From positions 2,400,001 through 2,464,000 of the forward strand of contig CP084166.1 in the NCBI GenBank assembly GCA_021513695.1: DNA of 64,000 nt, given 5' to 3'. The stretch comes from Candidatus Heimdallarchaeum aukensis (GTDB lineage Archaea > Asgardarchaeota > Heimdallarchaeia > Heimdallarchaeales > Heimdallarchaeaceae). A program made the translations under genes and the position numbers. The notes below the pieces were generated by a model. The model had not been told where the DNA came from and did no database searches. It was given only the letters and a program-made list of their open reading frames with translations. Position 1 is the first letter of the stretch; each line of letters begins with the position of its first letter. Positions 8,239 through 35,221 of the stretch are shown in pieces.

Positions 8239-8937
8239 ATGAAAACACAAAAACTATCTACTCTTTTTAAGAGATGCAGAGTCCCCAAAAAAATAATAAT
8301 AAAAGCTATTTATGAATATATTGGTTCAAAGAATGGTTTGAGGACAGTAGCATGGAAGAATGGTTTAACGCATCAAACATTATGGTATTGGGTAAAGAAG
8401 TTCAGGCTCTTTAGGGAAAGTTTACATAGAGTTGTAGCAGAGAGAGGGGGAATACCAGAGATTATAGTAGTAGATGAAACAGAGATTAGGACCTCTCAAG
8501 GCTCAATATATCTGTGGTTCGCGTTAGATCCTTACAACAAGACTTTACTGGGTTTTAGTATTACTAAAGGACGGAGTAATCTTGAATGTTTACTAACTTT
8601 CCGTTATTGGTTCAAATGTTGGGGTTTTAAGCCCCGTATTGTCGTTACAGATGCAGGAGTATGGTATCCTGTCTTACTTCGTCTCGGTATCAAAATCTCT
8701 GTTATCAAAGGTGGTTTACGCTCCTATATTGAACGTTTTAATGCTACTCTTAAGAGTTATCGTTGGTTTCATTCTATTCTCCACTGCACTTGTCCTATCC
8801 GTGCCGTCTATGGCTCTACTCATCTTTCTGGTTTCCTTACTCTCTTTATGCTCCATTATAATTTCGTTCGTCCTCATCAGAGCTTGGGACATCCTCCCCT
8901 TAGTTCCTTTTTACCTAGGAGGTGGTATAAAAACTAG
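8239..8937 (+). CDS. DDE transposase, IS6-family-like
   Basis: 232 aa. VVDETEI...LWFALDP...YIERFNATLKSY resembles the IS6 DDE organisation (DETY..., AID, IEqdHR.iK). Bounded by the TIRs. Confidence 0.75.
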   Translation: MKTQKLSTLFKRCRVPKKIIIKAIYEYIGSKNGLRTVAWKNGLTHQTLWYWVKKFRLFRESLHRVVAERGGIPEIIVVDETEIRTSQGSIYLWFALDPYNKTLLGFSITKGRSNLECLLTFRYWFKCWGFKPRIVVTDAGVWYPVLLRLGIKISVIKGGLRSYIERFNATLKSYRWFHSILHCTCPIRAVYGSTHLSGFLTLFMLHYNFVRPHQSLGHPPLSSFLPRRWYKN

Positions 8938-18614: not shown

Positions 18615-18995
18615 TTAAAAATCATAAACCCAATTTGTTTCGGGAATGTACAGCAAATTTAAGATAAGTGTCCATACTGCTATAGTTACAATAAAAAACT
18701 GAAAGATTGCAGAAGTATAAAATGATTTAGTTTTAAGTCCAGTATTTTTGTTTCTATAAATTAAAAACCAAACTGAAGATGTTAATAGAAATACTCCAAG
18801 TAATGTAAGTCCTGCTGGCCAGTTTCTAAAATTAGTTACACCAAAGATTATTCCTGTAACTATTCCCACTAAAACTTTTGAATAGTACATTTTATTTGTT
18901 AAAGGCATTTCTTTAATCTTTTCTAACCAGTTGACGGGATTCAAATTGTTTTTAACTTTATTCTTAATTTTGTTCATATCAATATTCAAACTCAT
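18615..18995 (-). CDS. hypothetical membrane protein
   Basis: 126 aa with 3 predicted TM helices. Confidence 0.4.
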   Translation of the reverse strand: MSLNIDMNKIKNKVKNNLNPVNWLEKIKEMPLTNKMYYSKVLVGIVTGIIFGVTNFRNWPAGLTLLGVFLLTSSVWFLIYRNKNTGLKTKSFYTSAIFQFFIVTIAVWTLILNLLYIPETNWVYDF

Positions 18996-19011
18996 TCACC
19001 CAGGTGTTAAT

Positions 19012-21027
19012 ATGAAATCATCATTAACTTCATTAGATATCAATTGTCTTGTTGAGGAACTGAGACCCGAAATTATCGGCAGTTGGCTCAATAACGTCTA
19101 TAACATTGGAGAGAAATTACTTATTTTAAAGTTTCGAAAGTCTAGCAAAATTAATTTTGAGCTTATTATTGAACTAGGAAAAAGGTTTCATATAACAAAA
19201 TATGCCCGAAGTAAACCACCTGCTCCGAACAACAAGGTAGCAATGATGCGTAAACATATAAAAGGACTTCCTGTTGATGATTTTTATCAAATTGGTTTAG
19301 ATAGAATTATAGTATTTGAGATAGCTTACAAAGATTCACATTATAAGCTAGTTATTGAGTTGTTTGGAGAGGGGAATTACATTCTAGTAGATCCTGCAAA
19401 CAGGATATTGGTTGCTCAAACATATAGAAAAATGCGAGATAGAGATATTCATCCCGGAAAAGAGTTTTTCTTACCTCCACAACAAGAAAAAGATATTCTT
19501 TCAATTAGTAAGGACGATATTCTGGAATCTCTATCAAGTAAAGAAGAAAAAATCATCCCACTTCTCAATAAACTTTTAGGGTTAGGCCCTAAATATTCAA
19601 AAAATATTCTGGATAAGGCAAAAATCAATAACAAGGTAACAACTGAGTTAACCACCAACGAAAAAGAGTCACTCATAAAAGAAATACTAGAATTAAAGAA
19701 AATAATAGAAGAAAAAAGATATTCTCCTGTTGAGTATTTTGATGGTGAAGAAGTTATTGATATATCGCCTATTCCAATAGAGAAGTATAATGATTTAGAA
19801 AAAAAAGAACTAGATTCATTTAATGATGCTCTAGATGACTTTTTCACTGAAAATGAAGAGACACCAGAGTTCGAGAAAACAGAAGGAAAAATAAAGAGTA
19901 CTCAGTCAAAACATGAAAAAATTCTCCAGAATCAAATTGAACATAAGAAAAAACTAGAATTACAAGAGGAGTTAGAAAGAAAAAAAGGTGATTTACTATA
20001 TGCTCACTTCTCATTAGTTGATGAATTGCTAAACACCATTATAAAAGCGAGGAAAAATAATGTTCCTTGGTCTGAAATAGAGAAAAAAATGGATGAAGCA
20101 AAAAAGAAGAATATTCCTGCAGCATTAATCTTACACAAGATCAACCCTAAAACAAAAGAAATATGGGTAAAATTGGAAGATTTAGAAACTGGAGAAAATG
20201 AAATAATTGTACTAGATTTCACTCTTTCTGTTGCCGATAATGCGAATAAATTTTATGAAAAAAGTAAGAAGGCAAGGAGAAAAATACCAGGGGCCATCCA
20301 AGCAATAGAACGAACAAAACAACAAATTGAGAAAATGAAAGAGAAAGGAGAGCAACTTCTTACTGAAAAAGAAACTAGAAAAATGGTTGAAAAACGTCCA
20401 AAACGATGGTTCGAAAAATTTCACTGGTTTTTATGCGATGACACTGTAATCGTTGGAGGAAAAGATGCTAAATCCAATGAAAGATTACTTAAAACTTATC
20501 TGGAAGACGATGATCTCTTTTTCCATGCAGATGTGCATGGAGCCCCTTATGTTATAGCTAAAGACGGTAGGAAAAAACTCTCTGATGAATGTGTTAAAGA
20601 AATAGCAGCTTTTGCTCTATCGTTCTCAAGTTTGTGGAAAGCAAAAAAATTAGTGGGCGATGTCTATTACGTAAATCCTGATCAAGTGAGCCTAAGTGCT
20701 CCTTCTGGACAATATCTGGCTAAAGGAAGTGTAATGATATATGGAGAAAAGAATTATGTTAAGAATGTGGAAGTCAATCATGTGTTGGGATTAATCATTC
20801 ATGAAAACTACGCTCAGGTAATTGGAGGACCTATGAGAAGTGTTGACAATAAAACTGACATGATAATAAGATTAAAACCTGGCGAAATTAGTAAAGGAAA
20901 AATAGCAAAAATAATAAAGCAAAAGTTTATTGAGATGTGTCCAGAAGAAGATAAGTACAAAGTTGAAGCTCTTGATATTAATGAAATAATGGACTTCATT
21001 CCTGGAGATTCAGAGATAATAGAATAA
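19012..21027 (+). CDS. NFACT-family protein (Rqc2/NEMF/Tae2/FbpA-like, ribosome quality control homolog)
   Basis: NFACT-N-like N-terminus (MKSSLTSLDINCLVEELRPEIIGSWLNNVY..). Long K/E coiled coil. NFACT-R (DUF814)-like FLCDDTVIVGGKDAKSNERLLKTYLEDDDLFFHADVHGAPYVIAK. Track start 18931 overlaps the upstream gene; ATG 19012 is in frame. Confidence 0.8.
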   Translation: MKSSLTSLDINCLVEELRPEIIGSWLNNVYNIGEKLLILKFRKSSKINFELIIELGKRFHITKYARSKPPAPNNKVAMMRKHIKGLPVDDFYQIGLDRIIVFEIAYKDSHYKLVIELFGEGNYILVDPANRILVAQTYRKMRDRDIHPGKEFFLPPQQEKDILSISKDDILESLSSKEEKIIPLLNKLLGLGPKYSKNILDKAKINNKVTTELTTNEKESLIKEILELKKIIEEKRYSPVEYFDGEEVIDISPIPIEKYNDLEKKELDSFNDALDDFFTENEETPEFEKTEGKIKSTQSKHEKILQNQIEHKKKLELQEELERKKGDLLYAHFSLVDELLNTIIKARKNNVPWSEIEKKMDEAKKKNIPAALILHKINPKTKEIWVKLEDLETGENEIIVLDFTLSVADNANKFYEKSKKARRKIPGAIQAIERTKQQIEKMKEKGEQLLTEKETRKMVEKRPKRWFEKFHWFLCDDTVIVGGKDAKSNERLLKTYLEDDDLFFHADVHGAPYVIAKDGRKKLSDECVKEIAAFALSFSSLWKAKKLVGDVYYVNPDQVSLSAPSGQYLAKGSVMIYGEKNYVKNVEVNHVLGLIIHENYAQVIGGPMRSVDNKTDMIIRLKPGEISKGKIAKIIKQKFIEMCPEEDKYKVEALDINEIMDFIPGDSEIIE

Positions 21028-21257: not shown

Positions 21258-22538
21258 TTGGTGAGTCCTATCACTCAAAAGAAGAAATGCCCTGTATGTG
21301 GATATGTGACAAAAGATCATCGTTTAATGAATTGTCCTAATTGTGGAACAGAGCTTATTTTAGATGTTGTTCTTCCAAGCCTAAATGTTCAGGATTCTTT
21401 TTTTGATATACAAGGAAACGAGTTAAAAGAAACACATAATCTAGGGAACAATAGTAAAAAAATTGACCAACCAGCTTGGCAAATAATGGATCAGGAAGGT
21501 GGAGCGACACAATATCCACTATTTGTAAAAAAGGAAGTAAATCTGTATCCTGTAATTCAAATACCCAGAGTTTCATTTGATTTTTTTAAGCAATATAGAG
21601 TTATATATCTAATTCTAATTTCAATACTCTCAATGTTACAATCAGCTTCTTTTTTGTTCCTAATATCGAGTTTATATGTCATGTTAAATCGAATTAAGTC
21701 GTCTAGCGCTGTTTCTATTATTCCATTTTTACTAGTAGGATTAATCTGTTATTCACTATTTTCTTATTTACAATTTAAATTTATATTTCATATAAAGCAA
21801 AAAAACTTCCCAGAAAGAATATTAGAAAAAGATTCTTCCTTTACTAGTTTTGTTCTAATTAATGCTTTACAATTGTTATTTTCCGCTATTCTCTTAGGAG
21901 TAATTTTCTTATTAATAGCAAAATCGGGAGCAAATATTGAGAAACCAATTATTTCTCAACTTATGTTGGGATTAGGGCTTCTACTAATTGTTCCATTGTT
22001 ACTAGTCTTTAGAACAGCAAAAATTTTAAGCTTGATGAGGAAAACAGGGATCTTTCAAAACATGTACGATGCCATTCAATTTTCAAAATTTTCATTAAGA
22101 AGGGGATACGGGATTCTCTTTGTAAGTATATTATTACCTATTTTCATAGTTACTCTTGGGGTCGGATCTATAACTACATGTTTATCTTCTCTTTTCAGAA
22201 TTTCTGGTTACACAGTGTCAGTATTGCATATTGTTACTACTGTATTTTTACTTATATTGGTGTCTGGATTATTCCTTATTTCAAATAATGAAGATGTTGA
22301 TATTTTGTCCATCTATGAATCATACTTGTTTGCTTTCTCCGTTCCACCTAAAATAACTTGGTTAAATAAAGAAACCAATATCGAAAGCTCGAAAGAAGAA
22401 AAACAAGAATTTGAAGATTTATTTAATCTAGACAATGTTGACTCTTTAGTTGAAGTAAAGTACTGCCCAGTTTGTTCAAGTAAATTACCTGATGATGTTG
22501 ACTATTGTGTGAGCTGTGGTCACCCTCTAAGAGAATGA
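21258..22538 (+). CDS. polytopic membrane protein with N- and C-terminal zinc ribbons
   Basis: N-terminal CPVCGY...CPNCG and C-terminal CPVCSSKL...CVSCGH Cys4 ribbons flank about 8 TM helices. Confidence 0.5.
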   Translation: MVSPITQKKKCPVCGYVTKDHRLMNCPNCGTELILDVVLPSLNVQDSFFDIQGNELKETHNLGNNSKKIDQPAWQIMDQEGGATQYPLFVKKEVNLYPVIQIPRVSFDFFKQYRVIYLILISILSMLQSASFLFLISSLYVMLNRIKSSSAVSIIPFLLVGLICYSLFSYLQFKFIFHIKQKNFPERILEKDSSFTSFVLINALQLLFSAILLGVIFLLIAKSGANIEKPIISQLMLGLGLLLIVPLLLVFRTAKILSLMRKTGIFQNMYDAIQFSKFSLRRGYGILFVSILLPIFIVTLGVGSITTCLSSLFRISGYTVSVLHIVTTVFLLILVSGLFLISNNEDVDILSIYESYLFAFSVPPKITWLNKETNIESSKEEKQEFEDLFNLDNVDSLVEVKYCPVCSSKLPDDVDYCVSCGHPLRE

Positions 22539-22567: not shown

Positions 22568-23305
22568 TCACTTGAATTTTTTTACGAGTTGTTTTAGAAT
22601 TGTTTGTATTGTTTCTATTTTTTCTTCTATTTTCTCCACTCTTTTAACAAGCTTATTGAATTCGTCAGCTGATACTTCTACTTCTCCAGAGACTGATTCC
22701 ATCATCGATTCTTTAATATCTATAATTCCAGGAGCAAGTTCTTTTTTCTTTGTTACTTTAACGTTATTTGCTTCGAGAAGTGTGTAAGCCAAGAAATCAA
22801 ACGTTTCTTGGATATTTTGTCCTGTTAATGCCGATGTTTCACTATAGTAGAAGTTTATTCCCGTTTCAGTCATTAGTCTCTGACAAAATTCTATAGCCAT
22901 TTTCTGTGATACTCTCCTATTTTCTGGAGGAAGATCGATCTTATTAGCTATTACAAAGTAAACTAGAATTCCAGAATTTGAACCTTCAATACTCTCTTCT
23001 AGCCATGTTCGTAGATTAGTCATTGTTTGTTGATCTTGGATATCAAATACCAACAAAGCAGCTATAGCTCCTTTATAAAAAGTTGACCTAACAGCTGAAT
23101 AGCTATCTTGTCCTGCAAGATCCCATATCTGAAAAGTGATGTCATTGTCTTCTACTTTTACTTTTTTTGAAGCAAAGTCAGCCCCAATTGTTTTAAGATA
23201 GTCTCCTGTAAATCCTTTTCCCATATATCTCTCTCTAATAGAGGTCTTTCCTACTGCTCCATCTCCAGCCAATACAATTTTAAAATTCCATTTTTTTCCT
23301 GTCAA
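22568..23305 (-). CDS. Ras/Rab-like small GTPase (eukaryote-type) with C-terminal coiled-coil extension
   Basis: G1 GDGAVGKT, G2 Thr region (TIGADF), G3 WDLAGQ, G4 NKID, G5 ETSA. TTG start 4 bp after the upstream gene's stop. Confidence 0.85.
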   Translation of the reverse strand: MTGKKWNFKIVLAGDGAVGKTSIRERYMGKGFTGDYLKTIGADFASKKVKVEDNDITFQIWDLAGQDSYSAVRSTFYKGAIAALLVFDIQDQQTMTNLRTWLEESIEGSNSGILVYFVIANKIDLPPENRRVSQKMAIEFCQRLMTETGINFYYSETSALTGQNIQETFDFLAYTLLEANNVKVTKKKELAPGIIDIKESMMESVSGEVEVSADEFNKLVKRVEKIEEKIETIQTILKQLVKKFK

Positions 23306-23309
23306 GATT

Positions 23310-23996
23310 TCACCCTTGTTGTTTGTATTTAGCTAATTCTTCTTCTAGCTCATCTATTCTTCTCTGAGCTTCAAGTAATCTCTTTTGGAATGTTTCTCCT
23401 ACTTCCTGCTGAGTTCTTTCAAAGTGTGCTTTTGCTTCTTCTAACTCTTTCCTCATTTTTTCTCTTTCCTCACGAGCTTTCTTTATTTCTTCACTCTCAC
23501 GAACTGTTTGAACAGCCTTTTTGAGCAATGTTTCCAAGTCATCTTTTGAAACATCAAAATTTGAGGAAGTAAGCATCTTTAGAGCGTTAAATTCATCAGC
23601 AGAGATTGTAGGTCTACTTTTCATTAGGTCTTCAACCTTCTCTTGTAGAGCTTTTTTCTCGATAAGTAGATCAGAAACCTGTGCTTTCAGTTGTCTATTT
23701 TCTTCACTTAATTGAGTAGAATTTTGTGTTTCAATATCAAGTGATCTTCTAAGATGTTCAATCTCATCAGAACTTTCTCCTAATTGCTTTATGTATCGAA
23801 CTAGCATAACTATATATTCACGCAAAAGAGGATGGATTAAATGCCAATATTGATGGATTTCTCGTTCAATATCAGATAATCTCGGATCTTTCATGTTTGG
23901 AGGGAGTTTTACAAAAACAGGGTTTTCAACATCAATTTGGGGATAATACTCTGGAATATAATTGTAGATTGTTTCTCCTTTATACTTTTTAAACAT
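23310..23996 (-). CDS. coiled-coil protein co-transcribed with the small GTPase (putative GTPase partner)
   Basis: 228 aa. Globular about 90-aa N-terminal region, then a heptad-rich E/K/L/Q coiled coil. 4-bp gap to the GTPase gene on the same strand. Confidence 0.5.
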   Translation of the reverse strand: MFKKYKGETIYNYIPEYYPQIDVENPVFVKLPPNMKDPRLSDIEREIHQYWHLIHPLLREYIVMLVRYIKQLGESSDEIEHLRRSLDIETQNSTQLSEENRQLKAQVSDLLIEKKALQEKVEDLMKSRPTISADEFNALKMLTSSNFDVSKDDLETLLKKAVQTVRESEEIKKAREEREKMRKELEEAKAHFERTQQEVGETFQKRLLEAQRRIDELEEELAKYKQQG

Positions 23997-24151
23997 AGTT
24001 TAACCTCACTTTTTTAATCAATTATATGTATCAATTACATTTAATAAAAGTTTTATGTCAAAGGAAAAACTAATGAAAGTTAAATTGAGAATGTTTTTTA
24101 AAGTTAGTTAGTAATTCTAAGTAGGCCTAAATAATTTACAAATCTACGATT

Positions 24152-25576
24152 GTGAAAGAAATGAGTGAAGAAAATAAAGAACAGTTTTTTGAGTTAGTGA
24201 AAGAGATAGATGAGATTGTTTTCCAACACATGAAAGATAAAGCTACATCAATAGAGTTTAAACAAGTCTTAAAAAAAGAAAAAAGTGATATTAAACCTAT
24301 TAATTCAATACTTGATGCAGAAAATGAGGAAACAGAGATATCATCAGTTATGGATAATATAGGTATTAATACAAAAAAGGCAAATATTCTTGAAGAAGAG
24401 CAGTTGTTATTAGAAGAAGCAGAGGAAAATAAAATATTTTTACAATTAAAGGACAAGTATCCTGACTATAATATCTATATAAAGCAGATATATTGTTCAA
24501 GTAGCTATCAAGAGGACAGAGTAATTCAGCTTTTACAAAAAGATCTAACCTCGCTCAAAGACATACGAATTAAGAAAAGTGAGATCAAGTTTTTTCCATT
24601 TTTATTGCATAATATTAAGTTTGTATTAGAAAAACCATTTTCTATTAGTTTTTACGATTATGAAATCCCTATCTATAGAACTTTACAAGAAGAAAAACTG
24701 CGTTTTTATCCAATAGGAGAATATCCTTTTGAAGAAAGAGAGAAAATTTTTGAAAATAAGTGGATTCCACTAATAAGTAGTTTGCAACACTCATTAATAA
24801 AATCAATTAATGATGGAAAGTTAGCTGAAAAGAGAGTAGAAAGAATAGATAAAAAAAATATTTCACCTGTTGATTTTAGTAAATTACAAGAATCAATCAG
24901 TGCTTCTATAGATAGTGCAAAGAAAGCTTTTTCAAATCCTAATAAAGAAAACACGTCTAATTTTGAAACATTTTGGCAGAATGAGAAACAGTTCAACAAT
25001 GCTATATTACAATTAAAAAAACAGTTAGTAAATATAGAGCATGAGTTAAAAGAAGAAGATGATAGGATAAAAGAAGAGTATCTAGAATTAAAGAAAAAAC
25101 AAGTAAAATTGAATAAAGAAGCAAAAATGTATAAGCAACTTGAAAATCAAGGAATAAAAATTGAACGAGAAAAAAAAGAAAAAGTTGCAAAGATGTTATC
25201 TGAATTTCAAAGCAAAAAAGAATCAGTTCAGAAAAAACTCTTTGAATTTAAGAAGAAAAAGAACTTGTTGGAGCAACTGACAGAGCTTATTAAAAATAAG
25301 AATATGACTGATTTTGAAAAGAACTTTAGAATGCTCTTCAAGAAAGATGTTGACAATGCATTAGAAGCAATTAAAACAAGCATCGAAGAGCAAGGATCTA
25401 ATATAAATTTAGTTGAAAGTAACCATCTTGAAAAAAATATTAGGTTACATGTTGTTTGGGTTCCAATATTCTTAATAACCTTCAAAGCATCACAAGAGGA
25501 ACGTAAAATAGATGGAAAAGCATTTTATTCAGATTTTGATAATAAAGTCTTCATTATTTCTCCTACCACAAGTTAG
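24152..25576 (+). CDS. hypothetical K/E-rich coiled-coil protein
   Basis: 474 aa with extended charged helical segments and no enzymatic motifs. Confidence 0.45.
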   Translation: MKEMSEENKEQFFELVKEIDEIVFQHMKDKATSIEFKQVLKKEKSDIKPINSILDAENEETEISSVMDNIGINTKKANILEEEQLLLEEAEENKIFLQLKDKYPDYNIYIKQIYCSSSYQEDRVIQLLQKDLTSLKDIRIKKSEIKFFPFLLHNIKFVLEKPFSISFYDYEIPIYRTLQEEKLRFYPIGEYPFEEREKIFENKWIPLISSLQHSLIKSINDGKLAEKRVERIDKKNISPVDFSKLQESISASIDSAKKAFSNPNKENTSNFETFWQNEKQFNNAILQLKKQLVNIEHELKEEDDRIKEEYLELKKKQVKLNKEAKMYKQLENQGIKIEREKKEKVAKMLSEFQSKKESVQKKLFEFKKKKNLLEQLTELIKNKNMTDFEKNFRMLFKKDVDNALEAIKTSIEEQGSNINLVESNHLEKNIRLHVVWVPIFLITFKASQEERKIDGKAFYSDFDNKVFIISPTTS

Positions 25577-25817
25577 ACAATAGTGACTAGATAGCTTTCT
25601 GATTCATTGATTTTTTCTGGATATGTTAGTAATAAGGCTCAAGAGACTAAAACGCAGATATTTCTGAATTCATATTTGATTAAACTTTCGTTCTATTTAT
25701 TAAAAAAATAACAAATTCTTGTGTAAATTAACCATGTGTATATATAATTCAACGTTCTTATCTGAATCTAAAAGTTTAAGAGTTTCTAAACTAGATATTT
25801 TCGTAGACAAAGTGAAA

Positions 25818-26420
25818 ATGATGAAAACGCTTTTCGATAAATCAAAATTCGATATGAAAGTAGAAGAAATTATGACAAAAGGGGTAATTTCTGTTGCCCC
25901 AAAAGCAAGTGCAGAAGTTTGTGCCAAACTAATGATCGATAATAAGATTGGCTCTGTCGTAGTAATAGACAGTAGTAAAAAAATTCTAGGTATCATTACC
26001 AAAGAAAATCTAATTAAACATGTTATAGCACAAAATGCAAGTCCAGAAGAAGTAAAAGCTTTTGAGATAATGTCTGCGCCAGTAATTACAGCTAGAGAGA
26101 CAATAACTATTTCAGAAGCTATGCGAAAAATGTTTAAAGAGAATATCCGCCACTTGGTGATTACTGATTCACAAGGATTTGTAATAGGAATATGTACAGA
26201 TACAGATCTGTTTAAAGTAGTTCCCACTTTAATTCTGATAGAAAAAGAATATTTGCAACTGATGAGAAATGAAGAGGAAGATACTAAAAATGAAGAATTA
26301 GTATCAGGATATTGTGATGACTGTGGAGAATATTCAGATTCACTAATGGAAATTGATGGCCAATTTAAGTGCCCAAGATGTGTCCCAGAAGATATAAACA
26401 TTATGCCACCTGAAATATAG
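25818..26420 (+). CDS. CBS-pair domain protein with C-terminal Cys4 zinc ribbon
   Basis: Two CBS motifs (IMTKGVISVAP...KIGSVVVID..LGIITKENL; FEIMSAPVITA...IRHLVITD..GICTDTDL). CDDCGEY...CPRC ribbon. Start uncertain; in-frame alternatives at 25719 (TTG) and 25734. Confidence 0.75.
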   Translation: MMKTLFDKSKFDMKVEEIMTKGVISVAPKASAEVCAKLMIDNKIGSVVVIDSSKKILGIITKENLIKHVIAQNASPEEVKAFEIMSAPVITARETITISEAMRKMFKENIRHLVITDSQGFVIGICTDTDLFKVVPTLILIEKEYLQLMRNEEEDTKNEELVSGYCDDCGEYSDSLMEIDGQFKCPRCVPEDINIMPPEI

Positions 26421-30139: not shown

Positions 30140-31072
30140 TTAAAATAGATTAGTACTTAACATTAATGGTGGAATAATAATTAGTACATTGGCGGCTAAT
30201 ATTGCTGCATAAGCAAATTTATTCCAGTTAAGAATTTTTTTTCCGTCTAGCTGCCATAAGGGAATGCAATTAAAAAGCGCAATAAGTCCGTTGAATAGAG
30301 TTATTTTCAAAAAGATATTTTCAAATATAGGTGAAAAAGTCAAAGGTAGAATTGCAAATTTGATAAGTAAACCAATAATTAGACTAACTCCTCCAATAAT
30401 TGCATTTATAGCTGGACCAGCTAAAGCTACAAGTCCGCCTTCTTTTTTAGTCATTTTTCGTCTAGGATCTAAGGGAACAATTGCTACAAAGCCAGGAACA
30501 ATTAAACCTATTTGGAAAATTAAAGTAAATAATGTGAATAGAATACCTTTTGTCCATAGAACATACCTTGCAAATTGTCCTTTTTTAATTGCCACAAATT
30601 TATGAGCTAGTTCATGAGGTAGAAAAGCTGTACCAATAAGGATTCCTGAAATAATAAATCCCCAGTAGTTTCTTTCGAAGATAAATTCTGATATCCCAAA
30701 TACAAGTATAATTAGTCCAAAACCAAAAATCAGGTCTAAAGCTTCTGAACCTAAAGAAAAAATATCAGGAGAAGCTAACAATCTTCTAGTTATTAATTCT
30801 TTTTTCGATTTATTGTCTAAACGAGATAATTGGTCATAGTATGCTTGTTGGGCTTGTTTTTGAACATATTCTGCAGCTTTTTGTATTCCCGTCATTATAG
30901 CAGAAGTTGCTTGCGCTACTGTCTCTGCTTGTTCTGGGAAAGATTGACCTAAAAAGATGGGGCATTGATGATTTTGGGGATCACGATGCTCCTCACAGAA
31001 AGAGTGGTGACAATATCTACAATAAAAGAGTATATCTTCATCTCTATTACAGTTAGGGTAATCGCATTTCAT
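30140..31072 (-). CDS. AN1-type zinc finger fused to M50 site-2-protease-like membrane metalloprotease
   Basis: N-terminal CDYPNC-x9-CRYC-x4-C-x2-H-x5-H-x-C (AN1 spacing). TM-embedded HELAH (HExxH). Distal N-x2-P-x3-LDG motif NCIPLWQLDG, typical of M50/S2P. Confidence 0.65.
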   Translation of the reverse strand: MKCDYPNCNRDEDILFYCRYCHHSFCEEHRDPQNHQCPIFLGQSFPEQAETVAQATSAIMTGIQKAAEYVQKQAQQAYYDQLSRLDNKSKKELITRRLLASPDIFSLGSEALDLIFGFGLIILVFGISEFIFERNYWGFIISGILIGTAFLPHELAHKFVAIKKGQFARYVLWTKGILFTLFTLIFQIGLIVPGFVAIVPLDPRRKMTKKEGGLVALAGPAINAIIGGVSLIIGLLIKFAILPLTFSPIFENIFLKITLFNGLIALFNCIPLWQLDGKKILNWNKFAYAAILAANVLIIIPPLMLSTNLF

Positions 31073-32982: not shown

Positions 32983-33993
32983 TTAGATGTAAAATATGTT
33001 GTTTAGAATAATATAAACAAAATAAATAATTATATTTGAAACCCACAGTCCCCATGCAAGATTTTTTTTCCATTCAAAAATATAATTTCCATCGGATAAA
33101 GGAAATAAAGGCATAGCATGGAAGACAAGAAAACCAAAAATAAATACAACTAAAGCACTTGAAAATGAATATAAAGCGATGATAAAACTAGATGCAGGAT
33201 AAAAAGCTCGCAATAATGTGAAAATAGCTGCAATAATTTCCCATCCAAGCAACCATGAAACACCAGCTAAAGCAGTTATTCCATATTCTCTCCTTACAGG
33301 GTTGATATCATTTAGATGAATAATGTTTCCTTGTGTTCTTCTGAATAATCTTTTTTTGAGGATAAGTATTGATGGAGGTAGTATGAGAACAGGAAACACT
33401 ATTGAAAGTAACGATATCAAAAATGCTTGCAACCATAAAGCATTTCTCGCACTTACTCCAGCTCTTTTACCTACAACAAAATGTATTACTTCGTGTAATG
33501 AATAAGTTAACCCAATTCCAATGAAAATAGTGGGTAAAATAATAAGAATTGTATTTCTGTAGAATTGGAGATTGACAGTGAAATATAGAGAAAGAATAAT
33601 AGAAATAAAAACTGTAGGGATTAAGATGTTAAAGAAATTCTTATCAAACGAATAAAGGGTGAAAAAAGCTGATCTCGCCAGAAATCTATCTTTTTTTTCC
33701 AAGTAAGAAGACGTTCGTTTAATTTTTTTGTTTGACATATCAATAGGAAAAACTTTCTCTTTTTTCTCTTCAGTTATAATTTTTACAGGAGTAGTAGCTC
33801 TACTGACCTTTGATTTTTTGTATTCATCAGATTGAAAATAGTTTAATTTTATACAATTATGTTGTTCTGGAAGTCGGTGTTTTGAACAATAATAATTACC
33901 ACAGAGTTTACACTTAAAAGGCAGCATCTCTTCTTCATTGTTACAATTTGGATATGAACATCTGGATTTTGGCATCTTAATCCTCCTCTTCAC
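32983..33993 (-). CDS. AN1-type zinc finger fused to M50 protease-like membrane protein (paralog of 30140..31072)
   Basis: N-terminal CSYPNC-x10-CKLC-x4-C-x2-H-x5-H-x-C. TM HEVIH (HExxH). Distal PLFPLSDG. Confidence 0.6.
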   Translation of the reverse strand: MKRRIKMPKSRCSYPNCNNEEEMLPFKCKLCGNYYCSKHRLPEQHNCIKLNYFQSDEYKKSKVSRATTPVKIITEEKKEKVFPIDMSNKKIKRTSSYLEKKDRFLARSAFFTLYSFDKNFFNILIPTVFISIILSLYFTVNLQFYRNTILIILPTIFIGIGLTYSLHEVIHFVVGKRAGVSARNALWLQAFLISLLSIVFPVLILPPSILILKKRLFRRTQGNIIHLNDINPVRREYGITALAGVSWLLGWEIIAAIFTLLRAFYPASSFIIALYSFSSALVVFIFGFLVFHAMPLFPLSDGNYIFEWKKNLAWGLWVSNIIIYFVYIILNNIFYI

Positions 33994-35221
33994 TATCGCT
34001 CTTTAGTGTGATTTCACAAATACGATGTTCTGTTTTTTCTAAAGAAATATCTGTCTTACATGTTTCAGCAATCCATTTTTCACAATCGTTACACATTATA
34101 TTATCTGGATGCTTCCAGAAACCACAGACAAGTAAAAATTTTTCTTCATCAAAATAAAAATCATTGATAAAACTACACTTGTTAAAAAGTTGAATCAGTC
34201 TTATCATTGGGTCAAGTTCATAGTAAATATCTTTTCCAATTTCCTGGTTGATTAATTCAATTGTTTTTTCTCTTTCTTTTAATCCCATTTCTCTTATTGC
34301 TTGAGTGCTAGCATGAACTGCTTGTTCTCTTCCTGCTCCTTCACGACTAATTTGAAAAAGACATTCTTGAATATAACCATACTCTGAAGCACATCGTGTT
34401 TCTTCGCAGAAAATTTTATCTTCAAAGATATGTGAAAAAATTGTTTCTAACATCCCTTCGATAAACGAACAAGTTTTTGTAGCAATAACTCCTAAAGAAT
34501 CTGTCCAAATAGAGTTTCTAACTGCTATTGAAGCTACTTTCTCTTCTGGGTCCAAATGCATCAGTGAAAATTTACCCCACCTGGCAACAATAGGCGATTT
34601 TAGAATCTCTGTAATTTTATCACGAGGTTTTTTAGCATTCTTAATGCTGATAGTTTGTATAATCCTTTTTCCTACTTCTTTGCCAATTTTATCTAAAACT
34701 TGTGATATAGGGTCTTCTTCACCTTCAAATTGCCCATAAAATATCATTTGTAAAAGTACAGTAACCTTATCTCTAAGTTCCCTTAAAGTTGTTGCCAAAA
34801 AAGGAAATTCTTCAAGGGTTGGAGAAGTATAATTAACCACATTTAACAATTCTGGTGATTCTTTTAATTTTGTGATAGATCTTTCCATTTCATCTTCAGT
34901 TGAAGAAATCATCAAATATTCTGTAATTGTTGGGTCAAAAATAACAACAGAGAGCATGAATTCTTCTTTTCCTCCCCTCGCAAGAGGATTTGGCACAGAG
35001 AAAAACATACTTGAGTAAACTACATTTACCATTGCATTGACAAAGGCTTTCATTTCTTGTAAAAAATTGAAGTCCATTAACCGTGTAAGGCTTGCAGTAA
35101 TTCTATCATCTTTTATTTCTGCTATGTGGAAAAGAAGGCGTGGACCTAATCTTTGGTCAAAGTGAAAAAGCATCACGTTTATTCTGTCTAGAAGATCTTT
35201 TGGTTCACTCATATTCTCCAA
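33977..35221 (-). CDS. hypothetical protein with C-terminal Cys cluster
   Basis: 414 aa. 17-bp overlap with the downstream AN1-M50 gene. C-terminal C-x9-C-x2-C...C. Confidence 0.45.
   Translation of the reverse strand: MENMSEPKDLLDRINVMLFHFDQRLGPRLLFHIAEIKDDRITASLTRLMDFNFLQEMKAFVNAMVNVVYSSMFFSVPNPLARGGKEEFMLSVVIFDPTITEYLMISSTEDEMERSITKLKESPELLNVVNYTSPTLEEFPFLATTLRELRDKVTVLLQMIFYGQFEGEEDPISQVLDKIGKEVGKRIIQTISIKNAKKPRDKITEILKSPIVARWGKFSLMHLDPEEKVASIAVRNSIWTDSLGVIATKTCSFIEGMLETIFSHIFEDKIFCEETRCASEYGYIQECLFQISREGAGREQAVHASTQAIREMGLKEREKTIELINQEIGKDIYYELDPMIRLIQLFNKCSFINDFYFDEEKFLLVCGFWKHPDNIMCNDCEKWIAETCKTDISLEKTEHRICEITLKSDSEEED

Follow-up and report, generated by a model that had tools for sequence, protein, structure and literature searches.

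A conserved gene pair of Asgard archaea encoding a Rab-like small GTPase and an all-helical partner protein

Among described systems, the small GTPase considered here most resembles Thor-Rab (PDB 7EZB; Tran et al. 2024, PMC10933270) and the Asgard Ras-like (RasL) proteins, with which it shares the G motifs, a DLAGQ switch II, an Asgard origin and the absence of a prenylatable cysteine. Its gene lies in a stretch of 64,000 nucleotides from Candidatus Heimdallarchaeum aukensis (contig CP084166.1, positions 2,400,001 to 2,464,000; hereafter the window), directly downstream of the gene for an all-helical protein, its partner. Archaeal Rab-like proteins, Thor-Rab among them, have been described as being without a C-terminal extension (PMC4915359, PMC10933270), whereas the window GTPase is longer by approximately 65 residues, the last of which form a heptad helix, an architecture that departs from the published description. 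Likewise, the GTPase genes of the Lokiarchaeon MK-D1 generally lie outside operons with roadblock, longin and TRAPPC3 genes (PMC10933270), in contrast to the window GTPase with its conserved operon partner.

Relative to the eukaryotic Rab7, Rab11 and Rab8, the G domain shows 30-36% identity and contains sequences that by eye partly resemble RabF1, RabF4 and RabF5, and the combination of a flexible region after the G domain with a helical partner is also seen in eukaryotic Rabs that have coiled-coil partners (RILP, the Rab11-FIPs, Sec2/Rabin8). However, the window GTPase has no C-terminal cysteine and RabF3 is not conserved, while family, PDB, Foldseek and profile searches gave no similarity of the partner to any eukaryotic effector, guanine nucleotide exchange factor (GEF) or GTPase-activating protein (GAP). 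The closest organisational analogue is the mglBA operon, which encodes a polarity switch of bacteria and archaea and in which the gene for a prokaryotic small GTPase, MglA, likewise lies directly downstream of that for a dedicated partner, but MglB is a GAP of roadblock fold whereas the window partner is all-helical. An MglA/MglB identity was rejected, as the GTPase scores as Ras/Rab and the partner has neither strands in its model nor a roadblock match in Pfam or PDB. The Arco system (ArcoA, ArcoB and ArcoC; bioRxiv 10.64898/2026.07.23.738820) is similar in placing an archaeal Ras-superfamily GTPase beside dedicated partners, also in Heimdallarchaeia; there, ArcoA is related to Arf/SR-beta and has an N-terminal amphipathic helix, and ArcoB is SepF-like. 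This identity was also rejected, given that the window GTPase is Ras/Rab-like with approximately 8 residues ahead of strand 1, and its partner is not SepF-like.

Conservation and organisation of the gene pair

Conservation of the pair was assessed by a linkage scan using one genome per species, in which the partner was present in 25 genomes. In all 25, the GTPase gene is the next gene on the same strand, with spacers of -1 to +25 nucleotides and usually a GGTGA or GAGG motif ahead of the GTPase start. The arrangement extends to a divergent Heimdall lineage, where a partner with less than 50% identity (P0193; profile E=7e-42) is followed after a 2-nucleotide gap by a 266-residue Ras-like GTPase, and to four of four Helarchaeota loci, where the spacers are -4 to +23 nucleotides and partner identity has fallen to approximately 20-26%. 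All of the linked GTPases contain the stretch SIRE(R/K)YMGKGFxGxYLKTIGADFAS and a terminal heptad helix. Adjacency has three exceptions among divergent partners: two are treated below (P0195 and P0196), and the third lies on a contig of 1.5 kb (P0194), where the next gene is not a GTPase. The preliminary description had proposed a dedicated, co-transcribed partner whose case would depend on co-occurrence across genomes, and such co-occurrence is evident here. These results suggest that the two genes constitute a conserved switch module of Asgard archaea, kept across two classes, whose products most likely form a complex.

The features of the pair in the window are as follows.

23310..23996, minus strand: partner gene, ATG start, 228 residues, all-helical product without a Pfam model
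22568..23305, minus strand: Rab-like (Asgard Ras-like) small GTPase gene, TTG start, 245 residues
23306..23314, minus strand: gene junction, a GGTGA Shine-Dalgarno-like motif overlapping the partner stop, and a 4-nucleotide spacer
23997..24151, no strand: AT-rich intergenic region of 155 nucleotides between the partner gene and a divergent gene of 474 residues, read by eye
22769..23305, minus strand: G domain of the GTPase, residues 1-179, with G1-G5 and Gln66, from the AlphaFold2 (AF2) model and the alignment
22670..22768, minus strand: linker of the GTPase, residues 180-212, with a conserved P(D/E)GI(I/V)D(I/V) element
22574..22669, minus strand: C-terminal four-heptad helix of the GTPase, residues 213-244, from the AF2 model, with no cysteine in the tail
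23886..23996, minus strand: partner residues 1-37, conserved, non-helical in the AF2 model at low confidence
23319..23885, minus strand: helical body of the partner, from the AF2 helices

Both open reading frames (ORFs), 22568-23305 and 23310-23996, were found exactly where they had been placed before, and the 4-bp gap between them on the same strand was read directly from the sequence: the partner stop TGA occupies 23310-23312 and is followed by 'aatc' (23306-23309) and the GTPase TTG at 23305. The GGTGA at the junction resembles a Shine-Dalgarno sequence in matching the 3' end of archaeal 16S rRNA. The TTG start is required because the first in-frame ATG lies only downstream of the P-loop; the Ca. 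H. endolithica genome annotation uses the same start. Searches returned 2606 homologues of the GTPase and 72 of the partner, many at 54-99% identity, and from these counts both ORFs are taken to be real genes. Upstream of the partner ATG, a TATA-like TTTTATTAAA at approximately 44-53 nucleotides and a GAGG motif at 7 nucleotides were noted by eye, and the 155-nucleotide region that holds them is presumed to be the promoter region of the two-gene unit. Given also the T-runs seen by eye downstream of the GTPase stop, and a 4-nucleotide spacer that leaves no room for a promoter, the two genes appear to be co-transcribed, and their translation is probably coupled.

The named partner homologues from the single-sequence search belong to Heimdallarchaeaceae or to Heimdallarchaeota metagenome-assembled genomes, apart from one labelled Pacearchaeota. 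A partner profile run against 1.84 billion representative proteins gave 18 matches at E<=0.001, a few of them spurious long coiled-coil proteins, and no credible homologue beyond these matches was found in that library, which carries no organism names. A second profile that included distant homologues added approximately 15 Helarchaeota proteins at 20-26% identity. On this distribution, the partner appears to found a small, Asgard-only family without a Pfam model. Public annotations of its members read only 'hypothetical' or 'coiled-coil domain-containing', while relatives of the GTPase are annotated as 'Rab family GTPase' or 'GTP-binding protein'.

The GTPase itself is a new member of an already known Asgard Ras-like group. 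All five G motifs are intact, as previously read, at positions invariant in 36 aligned homologues: G1 GDGAVGKT (residues 14-21), G2 T39, G3 WDLAGQ (61-66, including the catalytic Gln66), G4 NKID (121-124) and G5 ETSA (156-159). Pfam Ras (PF00071) matches over profile positions 1-159 of 162 with E=9.7e-40 and 136 bits, compared with 56 bits for Arf and 33 for Gtr1/RagA. In the PDB sequence search the best match was the Thorarchaeota Rab 7EZB (E=1.5e-34), with Rab7, Rab11, Rab9 and Ypt next, and all 60 of the matches listed are Rabs, Thor-Rab included. An AF2 model built with the 36 homologues reached a predicted local distance difference test score (pLDDT) of 84.7 and a predicted TM-score (pTM) of 0.74; within the G domain, confidence is low in switch I only and pLDDT is otherwise approximately 90. 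The top 50 Foldseek matches of this model in the PDB are again all Rabs (Rab11a, Rab8a, Rab10, Rab1b, Rab43, Rab30 and Thor-Rab among them), and their TM-scores, taken relative to the Rab target chain, lie between 0.75 and 0.85, as expected of a Ras-type alpha/beta fold. Grouping with MglA-type proteins, which would have spoken against the earlier reading, is therefore not seen among the 60 listed sequence matches or the 50 structural matches. An Arf-family or ArcoA identity was likewise rejected, as strand 1 begins at residue 5 in the model and the Arf profile scores far below Ras.

Across the GTPase family there is almost no variation in the alpha1/switch I stretch SIRERYMGKGFxGxYLKTIGADF. 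The five RabF motifs, reportedly defined by Pereira-Leal and Seabra in 2000, are said to be IGVDF, KLQIW, RFRSIT, YYRGA and LVYDIT. By eye, the corresponding window sequences are a partial match: IGADF agrees at 4/5 positions (as in Rab7), TFQIW at 3/5, SYSAVR poorly, FYKGA at 3/5 and LVFDIQ at 4/6. The protein ends in LKQLVKKFK, with no cysteine after residue 141 and thus none for C-terminal prenylation. Asgard Ras-like GTPases have been placed outside the eukaryotic Rab clade, with none specifically sister to Rabs (bioRxiv 10.1101/2024.02.28.582541). Of the earlier 'Ras/Rab-like' label, the Rab likeness stands through the best matches in sequence and structure, but 'Rab' proper does not, in the absence of a prenylatable cysteine; by similarity ranking, the protein is best classed as Rab-like, within the Asgard RasL group, and not as a bona fide Rab. 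In a rough neighbour-joining tree of close homologues, without support values, the linked GTPases fall into at least three subclades, a pattern that would fit a linkage already present in the ancestor and lost afterwards in certain lineages.

The coiled-coil-type extension noted previously at the C-terminus is present as an AF2 helix at residues 213-244, in which a/d positions are hydrophobic at 8/8 sites in 31/36 homologues. It occupies the site of the hypervariable tail and prenylated cysteines of eukaryotic Rabs. In the linker that precedes it, the conserved P(D/E)GI(I/V)D(I/V) element is modelled with high confidence as a strand (194-196) and a helix (197-205). Longer relatives, and many Asgard Ras-like GTPases in general, are built alike, with an acidic linker and a heptad helix behind the G domain.

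As a separate observation, a near-identical stretch, (I/V)SADEFN(A/K)L, occurs in both proteins, at partner residues 130-140 (23577-23609) and GTPase residues 210-220 (22646-22678). The form (I/V)Sx(D/E)EF..L is kept in the Heimdallarchaeaceae orthologues of partner and GTPase and not in Helarchaeota, and the GTPase copy gives sub-threshold matches to the MtrG N-terminus (E ~3e-4). The stretch may serve as a helix N-cap or as a docking site common to both proteins, or it may be due to chance.

The AF2 model of the partner is all-helical and without strands (helices at 38-53, 56-126, 133-146, 154-168 and 170-226), and its best heptad-like stretches, at approximately 97-127 and 201-226, span about four heptads each. 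The N-terminus is strongly conserved, yet residues 1-23 have a pLDDT below 50; K6, G7, T9, Y17, L31 and P32 are among the columns invariant in 26 homologues, and residues 1-37 are a candidate fold-on-binding motif. Three signatures recur in the family, namely KGETI(F/Y)xY(I/V)P near the N-terminus, YWxx(I/L)HPxx(R/Q)(E/D)Y at 50-61 and FE(K/R)TQxEVGxxFQK at 192-205, with W51, H55 and P56 the sole near-invariant residues of the YW..HP region once distant homologues are aligned. The YWxx(I/L)HP and FE(K/R)TQxEVG signatures are not those of a generic coiled coil.

There was no match to the partner above noise in Pfam, NCBIfam, PADLOC or PDB: the PDB profile search returned coiled-coil noise only (E ~0.3), Foldseek with the partner model found nothing at E <= 0.001, and the NCBIfam and PADLOC matches were sub-threshold coiled coils (Rad50, SMC, HlyD, JetC). 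A Pfam 'Rab11-FIP3-like' match below cut-off (E=0.002) was rejected as reflecting coiled-coil composition and not homology. SNARE proteins have been reported in Heimdallarchaeota, for which the criteria are a zero-layer Q/R motif and a C-terminal membrane anchor. The partner has no SNARE-family match in Pfam, and its end, EEELAKYKQQG, is a charged helix that lacks a hydrophobic tail.

A proposed scaffold or effector role for the partner, and the alternatives

The favoured explanation for the persistence of this pair is that the partner is a dedicated scaffold or effector of the GTPase, to which a probability of roughly 0.55 is assigned. Under this explanation, one mRNA would yield first the partner and then the GTPase, whose start beside the partner stop would favour joint production of the two. 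The GTPase would act as a Rab-like GTP/GDP switch, joined through a linker of approximately 30 residues to a four-heptad helix where eukaryotic Rabs have a lipid-anchor motif. The two proteins would then assemble, the partner serving as scaffold or effector and possibly as regulator, with contacts made through the conserved peptide at its N-terminus and through the YW..HP and FEKTQxEVG motifs, and with the C-terminal helix of the GTPase perhaps adding a coiled-coil tether. Both the physical complex and its contacting surfaces are inferred, and the pairing of the four-heptad helix with heptad segments of the partner is a tentative element of the scheme, less probable than the scaffold or effector role itself. 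A GAP role for the partner based on an arginine finger seems less likely, because no arginine remains invariant once the Helarchaeota homologues are aligned, the alignment being uncertain there.

Several observations weigh against this explanation. Confidence in the partner model is no more than moderate (pLDDT 68, pTM 0.26), and a/d occupancy of its long helices is only approximately 75%. One divergent partner (P0195) has a GTPase gene 2.5 kb upstream on the same strand and not directly after it, another (P0196) has no GTPase gene within 4 kb, and there was no natural partner-GTPase fusion among the longer homologues. Moreover, GTPase relatives at 45-49% identity (P0085 and P0105) retain the heptad helix without an adjacent partner, from which it follows that the helix has a role that does not depend on an adjacent partner gene.

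This last observation, together with the recurrence of the domain plan in many Asgard Ras-like GTPases, is also what favours the most probable alternative, in which the C-terminal helix homo-oligomerises the GTPase, much as Rag/Gtr GTPases dimerise at their C-termini or as in the Arl13b coiled coil, and the partner is a GTP-dependent effector bound to the switch surfaces only. No counter-point to it was identified; it overlaps with the scaffold or effector explanation, from which only the binding target of the helix sets it apart, and it is considered unlikely, though the least so of the alternatives.

Somewhat less likely again is that the partner is a GEF of the Sec2/Rabin8 type, a helical dimer that would open the switch regions and so activate the GTPase. 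In eukaryotes, the examples of Sec2 and Rabin8 demonstrate that a bare coiled coil can act as a Rab GEF. The purely helical AF2 model of the partner is consistent with this, as is the near-invariance of switch I/alpha1 in the GTPase, which would be expected of a conserved regulator contact, and the Rab8:Rabin8 structure 4lhx is among the Foldseek matches of the G domain. However, there was no Sec2p match at E<=0.01 and no GEF family among the Pfam, NCBIfam and PDB results for the partner, the Foldseek search with its model was empty, and stoichiometric co-translation would suit a stable complex more than a catalytic regulator.

It is improbable that the genes are merely co-transcribed, with products that act separately and a partner that is a generic structural coiled coil. 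The generic nature of the sub-threshold matches and the existence of two unlinked partner homologues would fit such an explanation, but short-spacer adjacency persists to approximately 22% partner identity in two Asgard classes in which the surrounding genes have changed wholly, and the partner has conserved motifs that are not of coiled-coil type. Least likely of all is that the C-terminal helix is a lipid-binding amphipathic helix, such as the N-terminal helix of Arf/ArcoA or the C-terminal helix of MinD, since despite its amphipathic character (hydrophobic moment ~0.4), the KKFK ending of the window protein and the conserved neighbouring gene for a zinc-ribbon protein with a hydrophobic centre (see below), its hydrophobic residues form a narrow seam confined to the a/d positions, the median net charge across the 36 homologues is 0 (range -3 to +5) with 0-2 aromatics, and many orthologues have acidic ends. 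These properties fit better with a short coiled coil.

Neighbouring genes and the wider window

Beyond the pair, the partner's second-best match is encoded on the 3.33-Mb chromosome of Candidatus Heimdallarchaeum endolithica and annotated as hypothetical, and a 12.7-kb stretch of that genome is collinear with the window at 84.7% nucleotide identity, with a shared order of ThiI, AMMECR1, Mut7-C, CBS, a 475-residue unknown protein, partner, GTPase, zinc-ribbon protein and NFACT. This marks the window as that of a Heimdallarchaeum species distinct from H. endolithica. The Asgard origin that had been suggested for the contig is confirmed by this collinearity and identity, and the NFACT and AN1-finger proteins cited in its favour, two of the latter, are present in the window. 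The genes that flank the pair are the following.

21258..22538, plus strand: zinc-ribbon neighbour, 426 residues, Pfam Zn_Ribbon_1, convergent with the GTPase gene at a distance of 29 nucleotides
24152..25576, plus strand: Lys/Glu-rich neighbour, 474 residues, divergent from the partner gene

The 426-residue protein has a zinc ribbon at both ends and a hydrophobic centre in which transmembrane segments are suspected by eye, and a homologue at 23-32% identity occupies the same position in 24/25 Heimdallarchaeaceae species loci. The 474-residue protein had no Pfam, NCBIfam, PADLOC or PDB match; a Lys/Glu-rich homologue of 474-486 residues is present in 21/25 species loci, that is, wherever the flank was long enough. 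Both neighbours are only 21-32% identical to the window versions. In Heimdallarchaeum, the 474-residue gene is on the opposite side of the pair and divergently transcribed, and this difference in position between genera indicates that the cluster has survived rearrangement. In the divergent Heimdall lineage and in Helarchaeota the pair occurs without either neighbour, which marks the two-gene pair as the conserved core. The zinc-ribbon protein may nevertheless be a membrane component of the module, and a Heimdallarchaeaceae module acting at the membrane together with it is a speculative extension.

Other GTPases of this group have different neighbours. The relatives P0085 and P0105 (loci L029 and L030), from other Heimdall lineages, adjoin an unrelated protein in place of the partner:

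L029:4156-4779, plus strand, and L030:5817-6446, minus strand: protein of approximately 208 residues, two copies 45% identical, no Pfam match

This protein was rejected as a diverged partner (hhalign probability 0.2%) and has no homologue within the window. In Ca. H. aukensis, the closest relative of the window GTPase, at 41% identity, is an unlinked paralogue from another gene context (L040:4364-5735); it has its own C-terminal helix and lies directly downstream of a gene for a 186-residue protein with a weak Pilin_N match, which may represent another GTPase-neighbour pairing.

Elsewhere in the window, three further genes lie at 30140-31072, 32983-33993 and 33977-35221, all on the minus strand. 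One of the two AN1 zinc-finger proteins is fused to a Peptidase_M50-like region, and the gene for the second overlaps by 17 nucleotides that for a 414-residue protein with a sub-threshold V4R match (26.8 bits against a cut-off of 31), V4R being a superfamily that includes TRAPPC3/Bet3. The NFACT ORF (18931-21027, plus strand) would encode 698 residues from its TTG start, whereas in H. endolithica the gene is annotated with 671 residues, and the true start is probably the internal methionine at 'MKSSLTSLD'. A 232-residue ORF (8239-8937, plus strand) gave a sub-threshold match to the integrase core rve_3 (24.8 bits against a cut-off of 26.5) and may be a mobile-element remnant. Finally, a 233-residue antisense ORF (25700-26401, minus strand) is a nearly exact mirror of the CBS-domain gene at 25719-26420 on the plus strand. 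Of the two, the plus-strand gene is real (Pfam CBS E=3e-26), and the reading frame opposite it results from AT-rich codon usage.

Implications for Asgard GTPases

Asgard genomes contain dozens of Ras-like GTPases, of which almost none have been matched to a partner, because their genes are generally not in operons with the candidate regulators that have been examined (roadblock, longin, TRAPPC3; PMC10933270). This scarcity holds back functional studies of the archaeal origins of membrane and cytoskeleton control in eukaryotes. The gene pair was not found described in the open-access full-text literature searched, which is not proof of absence, and what is new here is the partner family and its conserved linkage to the GTPase. 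One Rab-like GTPase with one co-encoded partner, kept from Heimdallarchaeia to Helarchaeota, represents a rare matched pair that is directly testable, in the archaeal group nearest to eukaryotes.

Further, some archaeal Rab-like proteins do carry a C-terminal extension of targeting type, in the form of a coiled-coil helix and not a lipid anchor. A more far-reaching idea, which must be regarded as a long shot, is that the helix is a protein-based address tag in place of prenylation, plugging the GTPase into the partner, which would in turn dock the switch on the zinc-ribbon neighbour as a putative membrane protein. If true, such a tag would represent a pre-lipidation means of localising Rab-like GTPases in the archaeal lineage ancestral to eukaryotes.

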